This document shows, piece after piece, positions 44,965-56,408 of a stretch of DNA of 64,000 nt. The notes beneath the pieces are model-generated. The model ran no database searches, was not told where the DNA came from, and worked only from the letters and a program-made list of their open reading frames with translations. The stretch's first letter is position 1, and every line of letters begins with the position of its first letter. A program made the position numbers and the translations under genes. Source of the DNA: an uncultured Chloroflexia bacterium (lineage in GTDB: Bacteria; Chloroflexota; Dehalococcoidia; Dehalococcoidales; RBG-16-60-22); NCBI GenBank assembly GCA_963796365.1, contig CAWCLJ010000004.1, forward strand, positions 1,354,519 to 1,418,518. The letters are read 5' to 3'.

Positions 44965-46704
44965 ATGAAAAGATTCGTATTTTTAACTCTGGCAATCATC
45001 ATCGTATTGAGTATGACGCTCGTCGGTTGCGGCAGCTCAACCAGCACAACCTCAACCAGTACAGCCTCCACCAGTACAACCTCCACTACTTCCACTCCCA
45101 CGGGGCCTATGACGACAGTCATTAACACTCAAACTGAGACTATTACTACTGTACCTACTTCAGCGGCGCCTACAGCCAGTTCCACGACGGGCATTGGCGC
45201 TCTAGCCAAACCGGAAGGCGGTAAATCAGGCGGACGCCTCCAGTTACAGGCAGGCCTCAACATTAATAATATCGGTGACCCCTCCGGCACCGCCGGCCCG
45301 AGCGATGCGGCATACTCCTTCCCGGTTGTCGAGCCGCTGTTCATCCTGGACAAGAACGGTGACCTCGTACCCTGGCTGGCTTCAGGATATACTCCGGCTC
45401 CGGATGGCTCCTCATTGACAATTACACTCCGTCAGGGCATCAATTACACCGACGGCACTCCGTTCAATGCCCAAGTCGCGGCGTGGAACATTACTACTAA
45501 CGGCATCAACAGCGCTATGTGGCCCAACATGAAGAATGTCGAGGATTGCGTCGTCGTTGATGATTATACCATCAGACTCGACTTTGTAGGCGGCAAATGG
45601 AACTGGACCGCCATATCGAGTCTCGCCGGGTTCTGGAGCTGCTGCATGTTCGACCCGACGTCCCTGCAGTCTAATGATGCCACGTGGAAGCATACCCACG
45701 TTGTCGGCACTGGCCCCTTCATCCTCACCAACTACGTCCAGGACCAGAAACTGTCTTACGACGCTAACCCCAATTACTGGAGAGGCAAGCCTTACCTGGA
45801 CGGTATCGATTATAATATCATCGCCGATACGACGGTCGCCCTCCTGGCCTATGATGCCGGGACCATCGATGTACTCGGCGTTCAGCCGAAAGACGCCCAG
45901 AACCTGATTAACGGCGGTTTCACTATCACCACAACCAGCGATATGGTAATGAATCTGTGCATGATACCTTCCAGCGGTAATCCGAACTCCACGCTGAAAG
46001 ATATCAGAATCCGCCAAGCGGTTGAATATGCGATCGATAAACAGGCGCTGGTAAACGCCCTCACTTACGGCTACGGCGTAGCCACGAACCAGGAGTTCTG
46101 CCTGCCGCCTTATCAGGACCCGACGACCGTTGGCTATACATTCGATACGACCAAGTCCAAAGCACTTCTGACGCAGGCCGGCTATCCTAACGGGTTCACG
46201 ACGACACTATACTACGTACAGGGTATGCCTACAGACCTGCCGTTAGCGTTACAGGGCCAGTTAGCTGACGCCGGTATCACGCTTAACCTCGTGGCCGTCG
46301 GCTATATCCAGTTCGTAAATATGATCCAGGGCGGCCAGGGCTGGGATGGGTACGTATTCTCCTACGGTTTCCCGGGTACTACGGTTGACCCGTCCAGCAC
46401 CCTCAGCAACGGCCCGCTCAATGCCATCAGCGTTAACGGCACCTGGAAGATTACTACCTGGGATAGCTGTGCCGAGCCTGACGAAATCTGCAACCTGTTC
46501 GCGCAGTCTAACCAAGAACAGGATCCCGCCAAGAGGACGGCTGATATCCAGGAAATCTCCAGGTTGATGACCGATAAATATTGTATGTGGACCTTCTTCT
46601 ACTATACTCCTGGCCTCATGTCGGTAGCTCCTTACGTTAAGGGCTGTACAATAGGTCAAGATACCGAGTGGTTCCCTTATGACTACTGCTGGTTGAACAA
46701 GTAG
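44965..46704 (+). CDS. Family-5 peptide ABC substrate-binding lipoprotein with Ser/Thr-rich linker
   Basis: Lipobox LVGC, an STSTTSTSTASTSTTSTTST linker, and an SBP_bac_5-like body. Confidence 0.88.
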   Translation: MKRFVFLTLAIIIVLSMTLVGCGSSTSTTSTSTASTSTTSTTSTPTGPMTTVINTQTETITTVPTSAAPTASSTTGIGALAKPEGGKSGGRLQLQAGLNINNIGDPSGTAGPSDAAYSFPVVEPLFILDKNGDLVPWLASGYTPAPDGSSLTITLRQGINYTDGTPFNAQVAAWNITTNGINSAMWPNMKNVEDCVVVDDYTIRLDFVGGKWNWTAISSLAGFWSCCMFDPTSLQSNDATWKHTHVVGTGPFILTNYVQDQKLSYDANPNYWRGKPYLDGIDYNIIADTTVALLAYDAGTIDVLGVQPKDAQNLINGGFTITTTSDMVMNLCMIPSSGNPNSTLKDIRIRQAVEYAIDKQALVNALTYGYGVATNQEFCLPPYQDPTTVGYTFDTTKSKALLTQAGYPNGFTTTLYYVQGMPTDLPLALQGQLADAGITLNLVAVGYIQFVNMIQGGQGWDGYVFSYGFPGTTVDPSSTLSNGPLNAISVNGTWKITTWDSCAEPDEICNLFAQSNQEQDPAKRTADIQEISRLMTDKYCMWTFFYYTPGLMSVAPYVKGCTIGQDTEWFPYDYCWLNK

Positions 46705-46744
46705 AGGGAAAAGAATAAGAGCCGTAAAAACGGCAGAGAAATAA

Positions 46745-46782
46745 AGTACGGGCCTCGAGAAATCGAGGCCCGTACTATTTTT
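46745..46782. terminator. Bidirectional intrinsic terminator
   Basis: Perfect 14-bp stem agtacgggcctcga/tcgaggcccgtact with loop gaaa, followed by attttt. It lies between convergent genes. Confidence 0.8.
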
Positions 46783-47004
46783 AGTTCAGGGAGTAAGGAG
46801 TATTGGTGAGTATCAACTGTCAATCGGCTGGTGATAAAGGAGAGAGATACTAAATTCTGATATCTAAATTCTAATGCTCGCCTTATTCCCTATTACCCAA
46901 TGAGAGGAGAGGCCAGGAGCCACACCCCCGGAGCCCCCGCCAGAGGGAGTTATCTCTGGACTCTCTTTGGGATTTAGTACTTAGAATATTTTTCCTTTTC
47001 TCTT

Positions 47005-47988
47005 TTAAACTCTGATGCAGGCCACAAAATGCCCGTTACCGACATCGCGTAAAGGGGGTCTGGCTTGAGCACATTCCGGTATCGCCATACTGCAGCGCGG
47101 GTGGAAATGACAGCCGGGAGGGGGCATGACCGGACTTGGTACTTCACCTTTAAGGACAATACGCTGACGGGTCTTTTCCGCTATGGGGTCGGGGATGGGA
47201 ATAGCGGAAAGCAAAGCTTTAGTATAAGGGTGCAGCGGATTTTCATAAAGGTCCATGGAGTCGGATAATTCCATAATGCGCCCCAGGTACATCACGGCGA
47301 CACGGTCGCTGATATGCTGCACTACTGCCAGGTCATGGGCGATAAAAAGATAAGTCAGCCCCAGTTTTGTCTGGAGTTCTTCCAGCAGGTTAATAATCTG
47401 GGCCTGGATGGAGACATCGAGGGCGGAAATAGGCTCATCGCAAACTACCAATGAAGGGCTGCAGGCCAGGGCGCGCGCCACGCCGATACGCTGGCGCTGA
47501 CCGCCGCTGAACTCATGCGGGACGCGGTCCATCATGCTGGGGTCCAGACCGACCAGCTTGAATAAATCGGCCACCTTATTACGGAGGTCCTTCCCAGTGG
47601 CCATATTGTGTATTTTCAAGGGGTCTCCCACGATATTCCCGGCGGTCTGCCGCGGATTGAGCGACCCGAAAGGGTCCTGGAAAATGACACCCATATTGCG
47701 GCGTAAATCTTTTAACTTATGTTCAGGCATCATGGAGATATCATTTCCATTAAAAAAAATACTGCCAGACGTGGGATTATAAAGACGCAAAATACAACGG
47801 CCGGTAGTAGTCTTGCCGCAGCCGCTTTCGCCCACCAGCCCGAGCGTCTCATTTTTTTTAATGATAAAGCTAATTTCATCTACGGCCTTCACATCTCCGA
47901 CTTTTTTCCGGAATAGTCCCCGTGTAATGGGGAAATACATCTTAAGGTCTTTAACATCAACCATCACGTTATTATCTGATGTTGTCAT
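47005..47988 (-). CDS. Oligopeptide ABC transporter ATP-binding protein (OppF-like)
   Basis: GESGCGKTT, FSGGQRQR, VCDEPISALD. The start MTTSDNN at 47988 overlaps the upstream stop (TAATG). Confidence 0.88.
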   Translation of the reverse strand: MTTSDNNVMVDVKDLKMYFPITRGLFRKKVGDVKAVDEISFIIKKNETLGLVGESGCGKTTTGRCILRLYNPTSGSIFFNGNDISMMPEHKLKDLRRNMGVIFQDPFGSLNPRQTAGNIVGDPLKIHNMATGKDLRNKVADLFKLVGLDPSMMDRVPHEFSGGQRQRIGVARALACSPSLVVCDEPISALDVSIQAQIINLLEELQTKLGLTYLFIAHDLAVVQHISDRVAVMYLGRIMELSDSMDLYENPLHPYTKALLSAIPIPDPIAEKTRQRIVLKGEVPSPVMPPPGCHFHPRCSMAIPECAQARPPLRDVGNGHFVACIRV

Positions 47989-48974
47989 TACTTCCCCTTT
48001 TTGTCTGCAAAGCAGGCTACGTAATGCTGCTCGCCCACGGCGCGTAATGCCGGCCAGGGTTCTTTGAGGCATCTTTCGACCTTGCGGGTACACCTGGGCA
48101 GGAAAGCGCAGGTTGGCGGCATATCGATAAGGTTTGGCGGCAGACCCTCGATAGGTACCAGTTTTCTCGTGCCGTGCCTTTCACCCAGCTTGGGTACGCT
48201 GTTTAACAGGCCGATGGTATAAGGGTGCTGCGGGCGTTCAAAAATATCTTCAGAAAGGCCGGACTCGATAATACGGCCGGAATACATGACGTAAATTCTC
48301 TGGGCATAGCGGGCTACTACCCCCAGGTTATGGGTGACGATAACCAGCGATGCATGGTGCTGTGTGACCAGGTCTTTCATCAGCTCCAGAAGCTGTGCCT
48401 GGGTGGTCACATCCACGGCGGTGGTAGGTTCATCGGCAAAGATTATCTCCGGGTTGCAGGAAAGCGCCATGGCAATCATGACGCTCTGGCGCATGCCGCC
48501 GCTAAACTGGTGCGGGTAATCATCGATGCGGCTGGGCGCATCCGGCACGCCGACCATCCGTAAAAGCTCGATGGCCCTTTCTCTGGAAGCATGTTTATCC
48601 ATCTTGAGATGGAGTTCCAGCGTTTCCGTCACCTGGCGGGCAATGGTCAATACCGGGTTCAGCGAGGTCATTGGCTCCTGGAATATCATCGTCATTTTGC
48701 CGCCGCGGATGGAGCGCATTTCCGGGCCGTTGGCTTCGAGCTTACGCAGGTCCTGCCCATCGAAGATGATGGTGCCGTCCACGATTTCACCCGGCGATTG
48801 TATCAATTGCATCACGGAAAGAATACTGACGGATTTACCGCAGCCGCTTTCGCCTACCAGCCCGATAATTTCACCCTGGTTGACATGGAAAGAGACGCCA
48901 TCCGCCGCTTTGACCAGGCCGTATTCCGTTTTAAAATAGGTCTTGAGGTTTGTTACTTCCAATATACCTGCCAT
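47988..48974 (-). CDS. Oligopeptide ABC transporter ATP-binding protein (OppD-like)
   Basis: [27 protein letters not shown], with a C-terminal oligopeptide-type extension. Confidence 0.9.
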
Positions 48975-49006
48975 AATACCATCCTCATATTAATGGTGTA
49001 ACATTC

Positions 49007-49921
49007 TTATAAAACACCCCTTAGTTTCGGGTCAATAGCGTCTCTGATGCCGTCGCCGACCATATTAAATCCGTATACCAGGATCATAATAGCCACTCCG
49101 GGGGCTATGGCAAGCAAAGGATTGGTTAAGAGTTGAGACTGGCCATCCATGACCATATTGCCCCAGGAGGGAGTGGGAGCCTGGATACCGATGCCCAGGT
49201 AGCTTAGGCCGGCTTCCCCCAGCACGATACCGCCGATGGCCATCGTTAAACCGACGATTAAAGGAGGGAAGGCATTAGGAAAGATTTGTGTCAGCATGAT
49301 ACGCCAGTTACTCATACCGACAGCCTTGCCTGCCAGGACGTAATCATTCTGTTTCACGCTTAATGCCTGGCCGCACATCATACGTGCCATACCAGGGATG
49401 TTGCCGAAGCCGAGGGCAAAGATGACGACCCAGATACTCCTGGCGGTGGACAGACCGGCGATCAGCATCATCAGGATGATGCTGGGTAAGGCCATCAATA
49501 CATCAACAATTCTCATGATGACCGTGAAAACCCAGCCGCCGAAGTGCGCTGCCGCAAGGCCAAGCAAAATCCCGATGATGGAGGAACCGAAGACCGCAAT
49601 GAAGCTAACCTCAAGAGAAATCCGGGCGCCATAAACAATGCGGCTAAAGACATCTCTTCCGAGCTGGTCGGTGCCCAGCAAATGATGCACGGAAGGCCCC
49701 TTTAGCACAGCGTTTAAGTTGGTTTTTATAGGGTTATAAGGTGCTATCAAAGGCGCAAAAATTGCTAAGATTAAGATGAAGACGCACATGACAAAACCTA
49801 TTAAGTAGAGTTTGCGCCCGAAGAACACTCTCGTGAAACGGCGCCACTCGCTGTGGTGAGGTGGGGCTGCCGTCAGGTCAATAGTTTCAACGTTCGTGGT
49901 CGATACGGTTTTGTCTGCCAT
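49007..49921 (-). CDS. Oligopeptide ABC permease (OppC-like)
   Basis: 304 aa, paralogous to 17212-18108. Confidence 0.88.
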   Translation of the reverse strand: MADKTVSTTNVETIDLTAAPPHHSEWRRFTRVFFGRKLYLIGFVMCVFILILAIFAPLIAPYNPIKTNLNAVLKGPSVHHLLGTDQLGRDVFSRIVYGARISLEVSFIAVFGSSIIGILLGLAAAHFGGWVFTVIMRIVDVLMALPSIILMMLIAGLSTARSIWVVIFALGFGNIPGMARMMCGQALSVKQNDYVLAGKAVGMSNWRIMLTQIFPNAFPPLIVGLTMAIGGIVLGEAGLSYLGIGIQAPTPSWGNMVMDGQSQLLTNPLLAIAPGVAIMILVYGFNMVGDGIRDAIDPKLRGVL

Positions 49922-49930
49922 GTCAGCCTC

Positions 49931-50902
49931 CTAAGAATATCTGATCCTGGGGTCCAGCCAGCCCCAGGCTATGTCTACTGCTAAATTGGAAAAAATAACG
50001 ATAGCGCCGAAAATGAGAGCGGTTGCCTGCACTATCTGGTAATCGTAATTGAAAATGGCCTGCGTCATCAATAAGCCCATACCGGGAATATCGAAGACCG
50101 TTTCGATAAAGACCGAGCCTCCCAGAATCATGGCGATCGAACCGCCGAGAGCGGTAATGACCGGAATCATGGCATTTTTAATCTGGTGACGGACGACAAT
50201 GATACGCTCGCGCAAGCCCTTGGCCCAGGCGGTGCGGACATAGTCTGTCCGCATGACTTCGAGCATGCAGGAGCGCACCAGACGGGCCATACCGGCAATA
50301 CCACCCAGTGCTACCGATGCTACTGGCAATATCACGTGGCGGCAACTCCCCCAGAAATCTTGAAACGGATTGACCCATCCGAAGAGCGGAAGCCAGTGGA
50401 GTTTGTACCCGAAAATAAATATCAGCATGATACCGGCCCAGAATGTCGGTACTGTCATCCCGATGTTGGAGATTGAGGTAATGGTATTATCCAGCCATGA
50501 GCCCCTCCTCAGAGCGCAATAAATGCCGGCGAGGATACCTCCGAAGGTAGATATGATGAAAATGAGCAAGCCGATATATACTGTCCTCGGGATGCGGCTC
50601 ACCAAAAGTGATGAGACACTCTGCCCGACACTAATTGACTGGCCCAGATTGCCATGAAGAACTTGACCGATCCAGGTAACATACTGGGCGTAAATCGGCC
50701 TGTCCAATCCGTACTTGTGCATCAAAACTGTATGCTCCTGGGGAGTCATCACGCTCATCTGTCCGCCACTCATCCTGTAGTTGCCCATATAAACCATGAG
50801 AGGGTCTCCGGGCAACAGGCGAACGAGCAAAAACACCAGCATGGTGACGAAGAGAAGGATGAGTAAACCGATTAACACACGACGAACGATATAGGTTGTC
50901 AT
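49931..50902 (-). CDS. Oligopeptide ABC permease (OppB-like)
   Basis: 323 aa, paralogous to 18122-19081. Confidence 0.88.
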   Translation of the reverse strand: MTTYIVRRVLIGLLILLFVTMLVFLLVRLLPGDPLMVYMGNYRMSGGQMSVMTPQEHTVLMHKYGLDRPIYAQYVTWIGQVLHGNLGQSISVGQSVSSLLVSRIPRTVYIGLLIFIISTFGGILAGIYCALRRGSWLDNTITSISNIGMTVPTFWAGIMLIFIFGYKLHWLPLFGWVNPFQDFWGSCRHVILPVASVALGGIAGMARLVRSCMLEVMRTDYVRTAWAKGLRERIIVVRHQIKNAMIPVITALGGSIAMILGGSVFIETVFDIPGMGLLMTQAIFNYDYQIVQATALIFGAIVIFSNLAVDIAWGWLDPRIRYS

Positions 50903-51324: not shown

Positions 51325-53011
51325 ATGGAAAACAATTTCCTCTCTTATGAAGTTCTTAGCCCCTGGGCGGAAGCCGACCCTGTTCCGTTTAAAGGCATTA
51401 ACCCCCGGGTAGATAAGCTTGACGGCAAAAAAATCGGTTTATTTTGCAATACCAAGCGGGTGGCTGAGCCTGCTTTAAAGGTGGTTGAAAGCCGTTTAAA
51501 GAAAGCTTATCCTGCCGCAGGGACCAGCTGGTTTTTCAATATGGTGCCTAACGAAGCGATTATTGAACAGCCGCGGAAAGGTGAATTCGAAAGCTGGCTA
51601 AAGGGGGTGGACGCGGTCATTGCCGCTTACGGGGATTGAGGGTCCTGCACCAAGTACCTTGTGTACGACGCAGTTTCCATTGAAGACCGGCAGAAACCGG
51701 TTGTCGCGCTGGTGAATTACGGATTTATGAATGATGCCGAATCCGCTTCCCGCGCCAAGGGGATGCCAAATGTAAGAGTGGTATCTACCAAAGTCCCGTG
51801 TGAAAGCACGGTCATCGCCGATATTGAGGCCGGAATAGATGGAGCCTGGAACGATATTATTTCCGCTTTAACGCGCTCCCTCACCGCCGAAGAAAAGAAT
51901 CCCCGCGTAGAAAAAAAGGAAAAGCCGGAACGTATTATCTTTAAAGGCAGCCTGGAAGAGGTCAATCTCTTTTTCTACCGGCGCGGCTGGACGGACGGCC
52001 TGCCTGTCATCCCTCCCACTGAAGCAGCGGTCAAAGAAATGCTTACCGGCACGGACCTGCCCCCGGACCGCTTATTGGGTAAATTGCAGTCCCGCAATGG
52101 CAAGGCCACGGTAGAAAAAATCGCAATCAACGCCGTCATGGCCGGCTGCCTGCCCACCTATCTGCCGGTAATTATCGCCGGTACGTTAGACCTGATGAGA
52201 ATCGGAACCCGGTTTTGCCGGCTATACCACCTTTGGTTTCAGCACCGGCTCCTGGTCGCCCTTCTGGATTATCAACGGCCCGGTACGCAACGAGATTAAC
52301 GTCAATAACGGTTCCGGGGCCTTCAGCCCGGGCAATATCGCCAATGCCGCCATCGGCCGCGCCATGGGGTTGATAATTAAGAACATCGGCGGCGTGCGCA
52401 AGGGCATCGAGGACATGGGAGTGATGGGCAACCCCATGAAATATACGATGGTGATTGCGGAAAACGAGGAAGAAAGCCCGTGGGAGCCCCTGCACGTGGA
52501 GCTTGGTTATAAAAAAGAGGACAGCACTATCACCCTCTCTTTCCCGCAATCATACTTGCAGCATTACCCTGCGGGTACGGACCCGGCAAGCGTTTTGCAA
52601 TCAATTTTGGAAAACATGCCGCGCGGTATGCGTTATACGATCGTCATGAATCCGGCTTATGCCAGGAACTTTGCCCGTGAAGGTTTTACCAAGGAGACCA
52701 TTAAAAAATATATTGCGGAAAATAGACTTGTCCCGGCGACCCAGCTAAGACCGCAGGCTGTTATCTCCGGTCAGGGCGGGCCTGAAACGCGGCCTTCATC
52801 GCGGGAAGAAAATAAAATGGTACCGCTGATAAGAGACCCGCGTTTTATCAGGATCATCGTAGGTGGTGGACCGGGCGCGTTCGTGGCCCATCTCATCGGC
52901 GGCGGCGCTACTCCGGGCCAGAAGGAAATCCAGAAAATCGAGCTGCCGAAGAACTGGGCCAAACTGGTTGCCAAGTATAAGAATGTGGTGCCAAACTACA
53001 CAAAATACTGA
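51325..53011 (+). CDS. Candidate selenoprotein, paralog 1 (GD-U-GSC motif); needs TGA read-through at 51637-51639 and a +1 frame change near 52199-52210
   Basis: Track ORFs 51325-51639 and 51661-52299 are in the same frame across the TGA. ORF 52364-53011 continues the homology in the +1 frame. About 561 codons when joined, and colinear with paralog 2. Confidence 0.55.
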
Positions 53012-53189: not shown

Positions 53190-53755
53190 GATACCCCCCA
53201 GCTAGGCTGGGGGGAGGAAAGCGAGTTCGCCGAAGGCGAAGCGGTTGATAGGATAGGAAAATCGTGGTATAAAGGTGGGGTGGCAATAAGAAGGACGAAA
53301 CACGCGGTTTATGAGCTGAAGTATCACCTAGTCTGGGTACCGAAATACCGAGCGCATATATTGGGTGGGGAGGTAACCCAGTACTTAAAAGGAATCTTCA
53401 GGCAGATAGCCGAGGAGTATGATTTTCAAATAGAGGCGATGGAGGTAATGGCGGATCATGTACATGTATTTATCGAAGCGCCGCCATCGTACTCGCCATC
53501 AGAAATAGTGCAGGTGTTAAAGAGTATATCGGCAAAAGAAGTATTTAAGAAATACCCAAGGATGAGGAAAATAATGTGGAGTGGGAAGATGTGGAACGAG
53601 GGTTATTATGTTAGGAGTGTGGGGGATAAAGTAACGAGTGAAGTGATCAAGAAATATATCAAATATCAGAAATATGAAGATAAAGACAGTCAGTTAAGGA
53701 TGTTCGAAAAGGGGTAGGGAAGGGAGAAGCCCCCCAGCTCTGCTGGGGGGTACGT
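53190..53755 (+). mobile_element. IS200/IS605-family element (tnpA only)
   Basis: Flanking hairpins ccccccagctaggctgggggg (53194-53214) and ccccccagctctgctgggggg (53730-53750) bracket tnpA. The boundaries are approximate. Confidence 0.8.
53280..53717 (+). CDS. tnpA: IS200/IS605 family Y1 (HUH) transposase TnpA
   Basis: 145 aa. YELKYHLVWVPKYR, HVHVFIEAPP (HUH), GYYVRSVG. Confidence 0.92.
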   Translation: MAIRRTKHAVYELKYHLVWVPKYRAHILGGEVTQYLKGIFRQIAEEYDFQIEAMEVMADHVHVFIEAPPSYSPSEIVQVLKSISAKEVFKKYPRMRKIMWSGKMWNEGYYVRSVGDKVTSEVIKKYIKYQKYEDKDSQLRMFEKG

Positions 53756-53963: not shown

Positions 53964-55635
53964 ATGGACCAGAAAAACACGGCTTATGAAGTATTAAGCC
54001 CCTGGGCGGAAGCGGATCCCATTCCCTTGCACGGTCTTTCACCGCGGCTGGATAAACTGGACGGCAAGAAAATAGGCTTGTTGGCCAATAACAAGCGCGC
54101 CGCTCCCCTTATCCTGGATGTCACGGAAAAACTGCTCAAGCAAAAGTTCTCCGGCGTGCAGACCAGCCGGTTCCGGGCCCGCTCTTTTTCCGTATCATCA
54201 CTGGAAAAGGACCGCGAGGCGGAGTTTAATGAATGGATTAATGGGGTGGATGCGGTTATCGCCGCCGTCGGGGACTGAGGGGCATGCACCAAGTACCTTG
54301 TGTACGATGCAATTTATATCGAGGGCAAAGGCAAGCCCGCTTCAACCTATATTTTTGAGCATTTCTACAATGACGCCATGTCCGCTGCTTCCAGCAAGGG
54401 CATGCCGGTCATCCGGGTCGTCAAGGAAAAAGTAGTTTCCGAATGTACGGTGATGGCCGAGCTTGAACCGGCTATTACCGCGGTCTTCACTGAAGTTATC
54501 GATGTTTTAACGAAACCTCTCACCGCCGAGGAAAAAGCCCCGAAGCGGAAAGAGCCGGAAAACCCGCCTCGGCTGATTTTCAAGGGTAACCTTGCAGAAG
54601 TCAACGAGTTTTTCTATCGTCGGGGCTGGACGGACGGCTTGCCTATCATCCCGCCCACCGAGGAAGCGGTTAAAGAAATGATGGCCAGCACGGATTTCCC
54701 GGCCGACTACCTGGTGACAAAGCTTGAGCCGCGTATGGGCAAAGCTACTGTCGAACGTATCGCTATCAATGCGGTGATGGCCGGATGTTTGCCGACTTAT
54801 ATGCCGCTGTTAATTGCCGGCGTGCAGGCGCTTGGGGCTAATGCCGGCCCCGGTATGATGGCGGCGAGCACCGGCTCCTGGGCGCCCTTCTGGCTGATTA
54901 ACGGCCCGGCTTCCCGAGATCTTAAATTTCCGTTCTACCTACGGCGCATCCAGCCCCGGCGACATCGCCAATGCTGCCTTCGGGCGTGCCATGGGGCTGA
55001 TAACCAAAAACATCCGCGGCATCCGCAAGCAAATCGAGGACATGGGCGTCCTCGGTAACCCGGGGAAATTCTCCTTTGTCGCGGCGGAAAACGAGGAAAA
55101 CAGCCCGTGGGAGCCTAACCACGTGGACCACGGCTTTAAGAAGGAAGACAGTACCGTCACCCTGATGTTCCCTAATACCTACCAGCAGATGATGCCCTTC
55201 GGGACGGATGATAAAGGTATCCTCGGCACCATCATCGGCAGCATTTTCCCCGCCCGCATCGGCGGTTTTGTCGCGATATTAACGCCCAACAACGCCCAGG
55301 CATTAGCCAGGCGCGGCTGGAGTAAGCGAAAGGTCAAAGATTATATTGTGGAAAATGCCATCGTCCCGGACGATTATTACAGCCGACTGGGACTGGATGC
55401 CAGGGAGATTGTCGGTAAAGGGGTCATGACGCCGGAGGATTTCAAACGTATCTTTATCCCCTCCAAAAACGACCCCGACCCGGTGCAGGTCTTTGTTTAC
55501 GGCGGGTTCGGCTCCTGGGTAGGACTGGCGCAGGGCGGCGGGGCGCCGATTGTTAAAAAAGCGGAGCTGCCGAAAAACTGGGTTAAACTGGTAGCCAAAT
55601 ACAAGAACGTTGTCCCGAATTACGTGCGGTATTAG
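53964..55635 (+). CDS. Candidate selenoprotein, paralog 2 (GD-U-GAC motif); needs TGA read-through at 54276-54278 and a +1 frame change near 54913-54921
   Basis: AAGGAGG lies 9 nt upstream of the ATG at 53964. ORFs 53928-54278 and 54300-55058 share a frame across the TGA, and ORF 54991-55635 continues in the +1 frame. About 556 codons when joined. Confidence 0.55.
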
Positions 55636-55937: not shown

Positions 55938-56408
55938 ATGGTGAGTATTTCTGATAAGGAACGCAGCTTTATCGAGGATGTAGGGGTAGTATTCGAGCAG
56001 ACAGGCCTTCCCCGTATGGCCGGTCGGCTTTTTGGTTGGCTTCTTATCTCCGACCCTCCCTACCAGTCCCGCTCGGAACTCGCCGAAGTGCTGCAGGCCA
56101 GCAAGGGTTCGATAAGCACGACCGTCAGATTACTTACGCAGTCCGGCTTTATCGAAAGATATGTTATTCCCGGCTCCCGCCACGACCATTTCCACCTGGC
56201 GCCGGATGCCATTAGAAAAATTATCAGACACGGTCTGGACCAGGAAATCAAGCATTTTAAGACCCTCTCCGAGCGCGGCCTGGAAATGATGAAGTCCCTG
56301 CCCCCAAAACGCAAGACCTGGCTGAATGAGATGCACAGCCGCTACAGCTACCTGGAAAAGACTTTCCCGACCCTCATGGAAAAGTACGAGAAAGAAAAAG
56401 GCCAGTAG
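55938..56408 (+). CDS. GbsR/MarR-family winged-helix transcriptional regulator
   Basis: 156 aa. FIEDVGVVFEQTGLPRMAGRLFGWLLISDPP...SELAEVLQASKGSISTTVRLL. Confidence 0.72.
   Translation: MVSISDKERSFIEDVGVVFEQTGLPRMAGRLFGWLLISDPPYQSRSELAEVLQASKGSISTTVRLLTQSGFIERYVIPGSRHDHFHLAPDAIRKIIRHGLDQEIKHFKTLSERGLEMMKSLPPKRKTWLNEMHSRYSYLEKTFPTLMEKYEKEKGQ

Follow-up and report, generated by a model that had tools for sequence, protein, structure and literature searches.

The two paralogous genes A and B described here lie in a 64,000-nucleotide (nt) stretch of DNA, called the window throughout, from an uncultured Chloroflexia bacterium (GenBank assembly GCA_963796365.1, contig CAWCLJ010000004.1, positions 1,354,519 to 1,418,518). 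Each gene contains an in-frame TGA that, on comparative evidence, appears to be a genuine selenocysteine (Sec, U) codon of a known selenoprotein family, and the 23-nt block that follows each TGA is very probably the core of a bacterial selenocysteine insertion sequence (SECIS). With the U (T) of UGA counted as nt 1, the constrained core of the element is nt 16-30, the codons AAG TAC CTT GTG TAC (AAGUACCUUGUGUAC), which are near-invariant across many phyla. In the proposed mechanism, each TGA would encode the Sec of a protein that joins a UGSC redox domain (U-G-S/A-C) to a C-terminal domain, and the SECIS core in the mRNA would be bound by SelB with Sec-tRNA(Sec), allowing UGA to be decoded as Sec and not as a stop.

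The block, TGCACCAAGTACCTTGTGTACGA, has exactly two occurrences in the window, both on the forward strand (coordinates of all features are given in Table 1). A search allowing up to three mismatches returns the same two matches only, with 0 expected from 100 shuffles. As the first-pass annotation had reported, each copy starts 9 nt past the T of its TGA, and all codons of the peptide C-T-K-Y-L-V-Y are the same in both copies, while the flanking codons differ. The translated context is D-U-G-S-C-T in copy A and D-U-G-A-C-T in copy B. A global alignment of the two genes has 995 of 1658 positions identical (60%), and the part of the proteins after the TGA is about 54% identical in amino acids (aa). 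The block is the longest identity tract between the genes, followed by one of 17 nt and three of 15 nt; about 0.005 tracts of the 23-nt length would be expected, by our own arithmetic for independent sites with p = 0.6.

Synonymous sites in the core are frozen. In an 80-sequence set of homologous loci, Lys at codon +5 is AAG in 79/80 sequences, Tyr at +6 is TAC in 68/70, Leu at +7 is CTT in 57/71 and CTC in 14/71 with no other Leu codon, Val at +8 is GTG in 57/63 and Tyr at +9 is TAC in 71/72. The corresponding frequencies in the family as a whole are quite different: CTT is used for 80% of Leu at the site against 12%, AAG for 99% of Lys against 56% and GTG for 90% of Val against 34%; TAC makes up 61% of family Tyr codons. 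G18 is conserved at 99% even though AAA accounts for 44% of family Lys codons. The two-fold and four-fold sites flanking codons +5 to +9 have entropies near the maximum. In a 690-column alignment of 18 sequences from several phyla, AAGTACCTTGTGTAC is the sole run of five fully invariant codons, and the exact 15-mer occurs 92 times in 76/159 loci, always at nt 16-30 from U. Selection on the block beyond protein coding, as first suggested from the two copies, is thus upheld by synonymous sites frozen against codon usage between variable flanks, with its extent reduced from the full 23 nt to the 15-nt core. Outside the core, Gly at codon +1 (51640-51642 and 54279-54281) is GGG in 72% of homologs against 19% in family usage. 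The conserved CCUY(G) at nt 21-25 is the complement of UGAGG(G), and a helix between the two could sequester the UGA itself.

The reading of TGA as Sec is drawn from 188 homologous sites: 79 loci from a genome collection, 80 metagenome loci and 29 extra copies in the flanks of these loci. The genome-collection loci have 52-80% aa identity to the window genes and come from Dehalococcoidia, Desulfobacterota, Acidobacteriota, Zixibacteria, Burkholderiales, Phycisphaerae, Bacillota and Dormiibacterota metagenome-assembled genomes. The homologous codon is TGA in 79/79 genome loci, 80/80 metagenome loci and 29/29 flank sites, or 190/190 sites once the two window copies are added. Codons +1 to +4 vary synonymously with G-[S/A]-C-T kept (GGN; TCN, even AGT for Ser; TGY; ACN), and the region downstream of TGA is therefore translated in frame. 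The Pfam UGSC domain (PF24696) matches residues 10-183 of both products, unbroken across the TGA, with E-values of 7e-27 (A) and 4e-25 (B); the scores, 95 and 89.5 bits, lie far above the cutoff of 25. Together with the literature on the family, these matches bear out the first-pass assignment of each TGA as a Sec codon. Queries with the N-terminal 191 aa and a 56-aa junction peptide recovered TGA-truncated fragments only, and no Cys-containing forms. The fusion subfamily looks obligately Sec-dependent, unlike most selenoprotein families.

UGSC-containing proteins are described as an established selenoprotein family with no assigned function and a presumed thioredoxin-like fold (PMC1976440, PMC2398784, PMC13188914). 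The window genes share with this family (PF24696 / NF041046) the U-G-S-C motif, U-G-A-C in copy B, with a TGA-encoded U. Their scores against NCBIfam NF041046, 'UGSC family (seleno)protein', are 79 and 74 bits, and since these are below the equivalog cutoff of 125 bits, the window copies appear to be PF24696 family members that fall outside the equivalog and form a distinct subfamily. The C-terminal domain of about 370 residues has no match in Pfam, in NCBIfam or, by profile search, in the PDB, and its AlphaFold2 model (mean predicted local distance difference test score, pLDDT, 44) was too poor to use and was discarded. According to the account in PMC2398784 of the Global Ocean Sampling (GOS) metagenomes, UGSC proteins are abundant there, and a 'UGSC/Unknown_1 fusion' is recorded in which the UGSC domain is likewise joined to a conserved domain lacking functional annotation; the C-terminal domain of the window genes presumably corresponds to 'Unknown_1'. 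The same survey counts 255 Sec and 21 Cys forms for the whole UGSC family (PMC2398784), so that Cys forms are reported family-wide, in contrast to none among the 190 sites of the window subfamily. The protein database holds more than 7,600 homologs, and in all public gene calls inspected the gene is split into 'hypothetical protein' products of 105 aa and about 449 aa. An invariant TGA with the 15-mer at a fixed offset offers a simple and specific signature for re-annotating thousands of such genes as single selenoproteins.

The block has several features in common with bacterial SECIS elements of the E. coli fdhF/fdnG type. It likewise lies in the coding sequence directly 3' of the Sec-UGA, constrains the codons that it overlaps, and is able to fold into a short stem-loop whose 5' strand carries a bulged pyrimidine and whose small apical loop has G-U on its 5' side. 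In the bacterial SECIS (bSECIS) rule, one of the first two loop positions is a G, as a rule followed by G or U (consensus model of Zhang & Gladyshev 2005, summarised in PMC13188914). The model also has an apical loop of 3-9 nt on an upper stem of 4-16 base pairs (bp), and the stem predicted for the block, of 7-8 bp with one bulge and a loop of 3 nt, or of 5 nt with G18-C22 open, falls within these ranges. The minimum free energy (MFE) at 44 nt, -10.8 kcal/mol for copy A and a marginal -7.6 kcal/mol for copy B, is within the model's limit of -7.5 kcal/mol, and shuffled sequences do equally well. A G in the first two loop positions is found if the loop is GUACC (G18 U19), not if it is the triloop UAC or CUUGU. 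The model places 16-37 nt between UGA and loop; for the block the spacing is 14 nt between A3 and G18 or 17 from U1, with 18 and 26 for alternative folds, the counting convention of the model being uncertain. The covariation of bSECIS orthologs is lacking in the block, whose main class is too invariant to inform. SelB presumably binds the block: such an element, proposed in the first-pass annotation, would be the best reading of the constraint and the Sec TGA taken together, while the specific hairpin drawn for it is not established. As the probable SECIS of a selenoprotein family for which such elements are already known, the element is unusual for its near-invariant primary sequence across phyla with no detectable extra stability. 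A SECIS near-invariant across at least eight phyla, in a gene for which the searches gave no Cys form, amounts to a useful natural experiment on what SelB reads.

The first-pass hairpin is tentatively regarded as the leading fold, at a confidence that falls somewhat short of even. In the favoured form, U10 would pair with A29, G11 with U28 (a G.U pair), C12 with G27 and A13 with U26, followed by one bulged C, a C-G pair, A16-U24 and A17-U23. G18-U19 would then be presented at the 5' side of an apical loop of 3-5 nt, and a lower stem of G6-Y33, U7-A32 and C8-G31 is optional. RNAfold returns this hairpin for the 23-mer in a slightly shifted register (C14-G25 paired, C15 bulged) at -3.7 kcal/mol, and the 44-nt MFE structure of copy A consists of the hairpin plus the lower stem 6-8/31-33. 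Averaged over 142 homologs, the base-pair probabilities of 10-29, 11-28, 12-27, 13-26 and 14-25 are the highest, with P of 0.3-0.43. The hairpin accounts for the conservation of G27 (with Y12), U24 (with A16), G6 (with Y33) and G18 (the loop G), and for the missing UUR Leu codons (C22). A proteobacterial class has a perfect 7-bp helix, UGCACGA/UCGUGCA, at -9.7 kcal/mol, in which the 11-28 G.U pair becomes G-C, and in the divergent same-genome pairs L020/L054 and L046/L047 the inner hairpin is the only shared part.

A number of observations weigh against the SECIS reading, most of them directed at this hairpin. Its energy is no better than that of shuffled or synonymously recoded controls, which the first-pass annotation had itself named as a refuting outcome: for the 23-mer z is -0.9, dinucleotide-shuffle z values range from -0.55 to -1.17 with +0.24 for copy B at 44 nt, and synonymous recoding gives a mean z of -0.5 (nt 1-45) and a median p of 0.27 (nt 10-30). 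The CTT class, to which the window belongs, has no excess stability over synonymous recodings at nt 4-66 (mean z -0.28). Covariation, the absence of which had likewise been listed as refuting, is not seen among orthologs: there are 0 compensatory pairs, the 88% of cells that are paired equal the value for shuffles, and RNAalifold finds no consensus structure in 81 orthologous 72-nt segments. Formally, both findings are refuting outcomes in the terms of the first-pass annotation. About 12 sequence classes (Acidobacteria-like) are unable to form the hairpin, the constraint on C21 and C30 has no explanation in it, and Val-to-Ala variants (15% of sequences) have an A.C mismatch at 13-26. In E. coli fdhF the SECIS loop lies 18 nt after UGA, with a bulged U17, the loop nucleotides G23-U24 and a minihelix starting 11 nt after UGA. 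The block differs in having its bulged C at nt 14/15, G-U at 18-19 and a helix starting 6 nt after UGA; its hairpin is weak and 3-4 nt nearer to UGA, with the loop at 14 nt instead of 18. With UGA in the A site, the 5' strand of the hairpin, nt 10-14, may be located within the ribosome. Within the window there is no Sec machinery and no tRNA-Sec, tRNA-Lys being the sole tRNA, and both window genes are frameshifted by a +1 insertion. Two further analyses were uninformative: Rfam with permissive E-values gave only noise and no match to the block, and mutual information with average product correction (APC) was rejected because it is swamped by protein and phylogenetic signal.

It is possible, although rather unlikely, that the block is a SECIS core with a different fold, either (a) a minihelix 18-21/27-30 or (b) a long hairpin 18-29/40-51. 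In fold (a), GUAC (18-21) pairs with GUAC (27-30) around the loop CUUGU (22-26); it spans the core exactly and could form after the ribosome melts nt 10-14. Its loop is as far from UGA as that of E. coli fdhF, 93.8% of cells are paired, and it covers the two strongest synonymous constraints, G18 and C30, as well as C21-G27. The fold is intact in the Val-to-Ala and Leu-to-Ser variants that harm the first-pass hairpin, and L023, a Desulfatiglandales locus with the sole AAA in the 81-sequence set, also has TAT, a compensatory change from G18-C30 to A18-U30. However, the later AAA sequences L147 and L151 have no such compensation, the fold is broken in all Phe/His variants, and its mere 4 bp are absent from the thermodynamic ensemble and provide no early loop G. 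When tested, an extension of the minihelix by a lower stem UGCA(10-13)/UGCA(33-36) found no support.

In fold (b), nt 18-29 form the 5' strand and pair with nt 40-51 (codons +13 to +16, ...NGARGA...), with a variable apical part. This is the 64-nt MFE structure of copy B (54293-54326, -17.8 kcal/mol) and of the CTC class (Acidobacteria-like, -17 to -21 kcal/mol), where its stability clearly exceeds that of synonymous recodings (mean z -1.59, n=50). Y24 pairs with G46 in 164/164 sequences, which would explain the use of CTT and CTC only, and there are 10 compensatory cases at C27-G42, with 73.7% of cells paired against 72.7 +/- 0.3% in shuffles. The compensatory cases all come from one clade, however, and the 81-sequence set has no covariation: 71.2% of its cells are paired, and shuffles give 71.6%. 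Opposite a near-invariant 5' strand, the 3' strand shows poor conservation (U28-N41 is paired in 13%), and copy A has two mismatches. None of the three folds has convincing covariation. If the fold is non-canonical, the bacterial SECIS model would be extended.

Less probable still is a reading of AAGUACCUUGUGUAC as a sequence-specific SelB/ribosome recognition element and not a stable hairpin, in the form of the 13-nt minihelix GUAC-CUUGU-GUAC, which would arise only once nt 10-14 are unwound by the ribosome, or of an essentially unstructured motif. If true, it would define a distinct class of bacterial SECIS outside the consensus, with no G in the first two loop positions and no excess stability. 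It would have spread by horizontal transfer along with a gene whose product obligately contains Sec, no Cys forms having been found.

Members of the same gene family at other loci have different sequences at the position of the block. A third, divergent UGSC paralog (MGD-U-GTCTWWGARR) is present at L064:6556 and L157:2736 (+), in genomes that also carry the main gene type, and one SelB presumably serves both types. At the same position relative to TGA this paralog has a textbook bSECIS, unlike the window: an 8-bp G+C-rich stem 15-22/26-33 with the triloop G23-U24-G25 (-19 kcal/mol) and a lower stem 9-13/38-42, the downstream sequence and peptide being unrelated to those of the window. An fdhF-like loop G23-U24 is found only here. 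The frozen AAGUACCUUGUGUAC is therefore not the family's only solution. At L023:2998-3060 the usual block is lost (AAA, CTG, TAT), and three amino-acid-changing substitutions make a hairpin of its own, CCUUC(21-25)/GAAGG(31-35) with the loop UGUAU, an apparent case of SECIS remodelling.

A further alternative, unlikely but deserving of weight, is that the SECIS is real in the family but a relic in the window, both paralogs having recently become pseudogenes, perhaps when selenium use was lost or when the IS200-like element inserted between them. The +1 insertions in A and B are independent, at non-homologous sites where 15 aligned homologs are intact; a truncated 212-aa product of paralog A is found in the public record, and an IS200-like gene lies between the copies. 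Against this, the insertions are the only flaw in either frame and the TGA and block are undamaged, which would make any decay very recent, and the genes of the adjoining Opp/Dpp-type ATP-binding cassette (ABC) transporter are likewise intact. Errors in the form of single-base indels are typical of long-read assemblies. The insertions are either an assembly error or a very recent inactivation.

Very little supports the view that a conserved active-site peptide, C-T-K-Y-L-V-Y, combined with codon bias or chance explains the block. The peptide is highly conserved, and TGC, ACC, AAG, TAC and GTG are the most or near-most common family codons. At the site, however, CTT, AAG, GTG and the GGG of codon +1 are far above family usage, and equally conserved peptides in the 690-column alignment (GWTDGLP, PPTE) show the usual period-3 variation with free third positions. 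The freezing of codons +5 to +9 against family codon usage is therefore not codon bias.

It is scarcely credible that TGA is a real stop separating one gene, for a 104-aa UGSC fragment, from a second, for a 449-aa protein starting from GTG at 51661 or 54300, with the block as a re-initiation or coupling region. Public gene calls do split the gene there, and UGAGGG contains the Shine-Dalgarno-like GAGG, but at 19 nt from GTG this is too far for a Shine-Dalgarno sequence. The UGSC domain of an established selenoprotein family runs unbroken across the TGA, and the 7 codons from TGA to GTG are in frame at 190/190 sites, with synonymous changes at +1 to +4. A complementarity of UGUGUAC to 16S rRNA 1392-1398 is dismissed, as that segment is paired in helix 28.

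Recent gene conversion, or a very recent duplication, that copied a short tract without functional meaning can hardly be maintained. The paralogs share a strand and are separated by 2.6 kb that includes an IS200-like transposase gene, and short conversion tracts between tandem paralogs are common. A- and B-type orthologs, however, are found in tandem, B downstream of A, in at least 17 other genomes, where the block is present in each type; the same 15-23 nt recur at an equal offset in 76/159 loci of unrelated phyla, and the check for similar identity tracts elsewhere between the copies, proposed in the first-pass annotation, found none beyond 17 nt. Since separate A and B orthologs with the block exist in many genomes, gene conversion is excluded in favour of an RNA-level signal, and these orthologs together with the identity of about 54% between the proteins make the duplication an old one. 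The identity of the two window blocks thus reflects shared constraint and not recent exchange.

Table 1. Features of the window, in window coordinates.
Feature	Position	Strand	Basis or remark
Opp/Dpp-type peptide ABC transporter beside the paralogs	44965-50902	SBP_bac_5 gene +; two permease and two ATPase genes -	minus-strand genes divergent from paralog A
Paralog A: putative UGSC-domain selenoprotein with unannotated C-terminal domain	51325..53011	+	open reading frames (ORFs), translation; about 561 codons
In-frame TGA of paralog A, probable Sec (U) codon of U-G-S-C	51637..51639	+	homologous-codon comparison
Possible lower stem of paralog A block, nt 6-8/31-33	51642-51669	+	RNA folding
23-nt block of paralog A	51646..51668	+	sequence search; first-pass hairpin, nt 10-29 = 51646-51665
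Constrained core of paralog A, AAGTACCTTGTGTAC, nt 16-30 after U	51652..51666	+	candidate SelB-binding part of the SECIS
1-nt insertion in paralog A, near 52198 (ATG A GAA)	52195..52200	+	orthologs CTGCTG-GAGTCGG, window CTGATGAGAATCGG
IS200-like Y1 transposase gene between the paralogs	53280-53717	+	Pfam Y1_Tnp, E 7e-42
Paralog B: architecture as paralog A	53964..55635	+	ORFs, translation, Pfam, homolog alignment
In-frame TGA of paralog B, probable Sec codon of U-G-A-C	54276..54278	+	translation, homologous sites
23-nt block of paralog B	54285..54307	+	sequence search; core 54291-54305
1-nt insertion region in paralog B, GATCTTAAATTTCC, exact base ambiguous	54918..54931	+	homolog alignment
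MarR-family regulator directly downstream of paralog B	55938-56408		

The window has no other gene with an in-frame TGA of the selenoprotein kind. The A-type and B-type genes of other genomes lie nearer to each other, at about 1.7-3.0 kb from TGA to TGA. The ortholog at L160 (Dehalococcoidia GCA_041300405.1) likewise has MarR/TetR regulators and a BPD_transp_1 gene on its flanks. A Complex1_30kDa/49kDa ([NiFe]-hydrogenase-like) gene that lies about 500 bp downstream of this UGSC ortholog has an in-frame TAG, not TGA, at L160:11083-11085, after which the frame runs about 115 codons further. This TAG may have arisen by nonsense mutation or sequencing error, or may reflect recoding.

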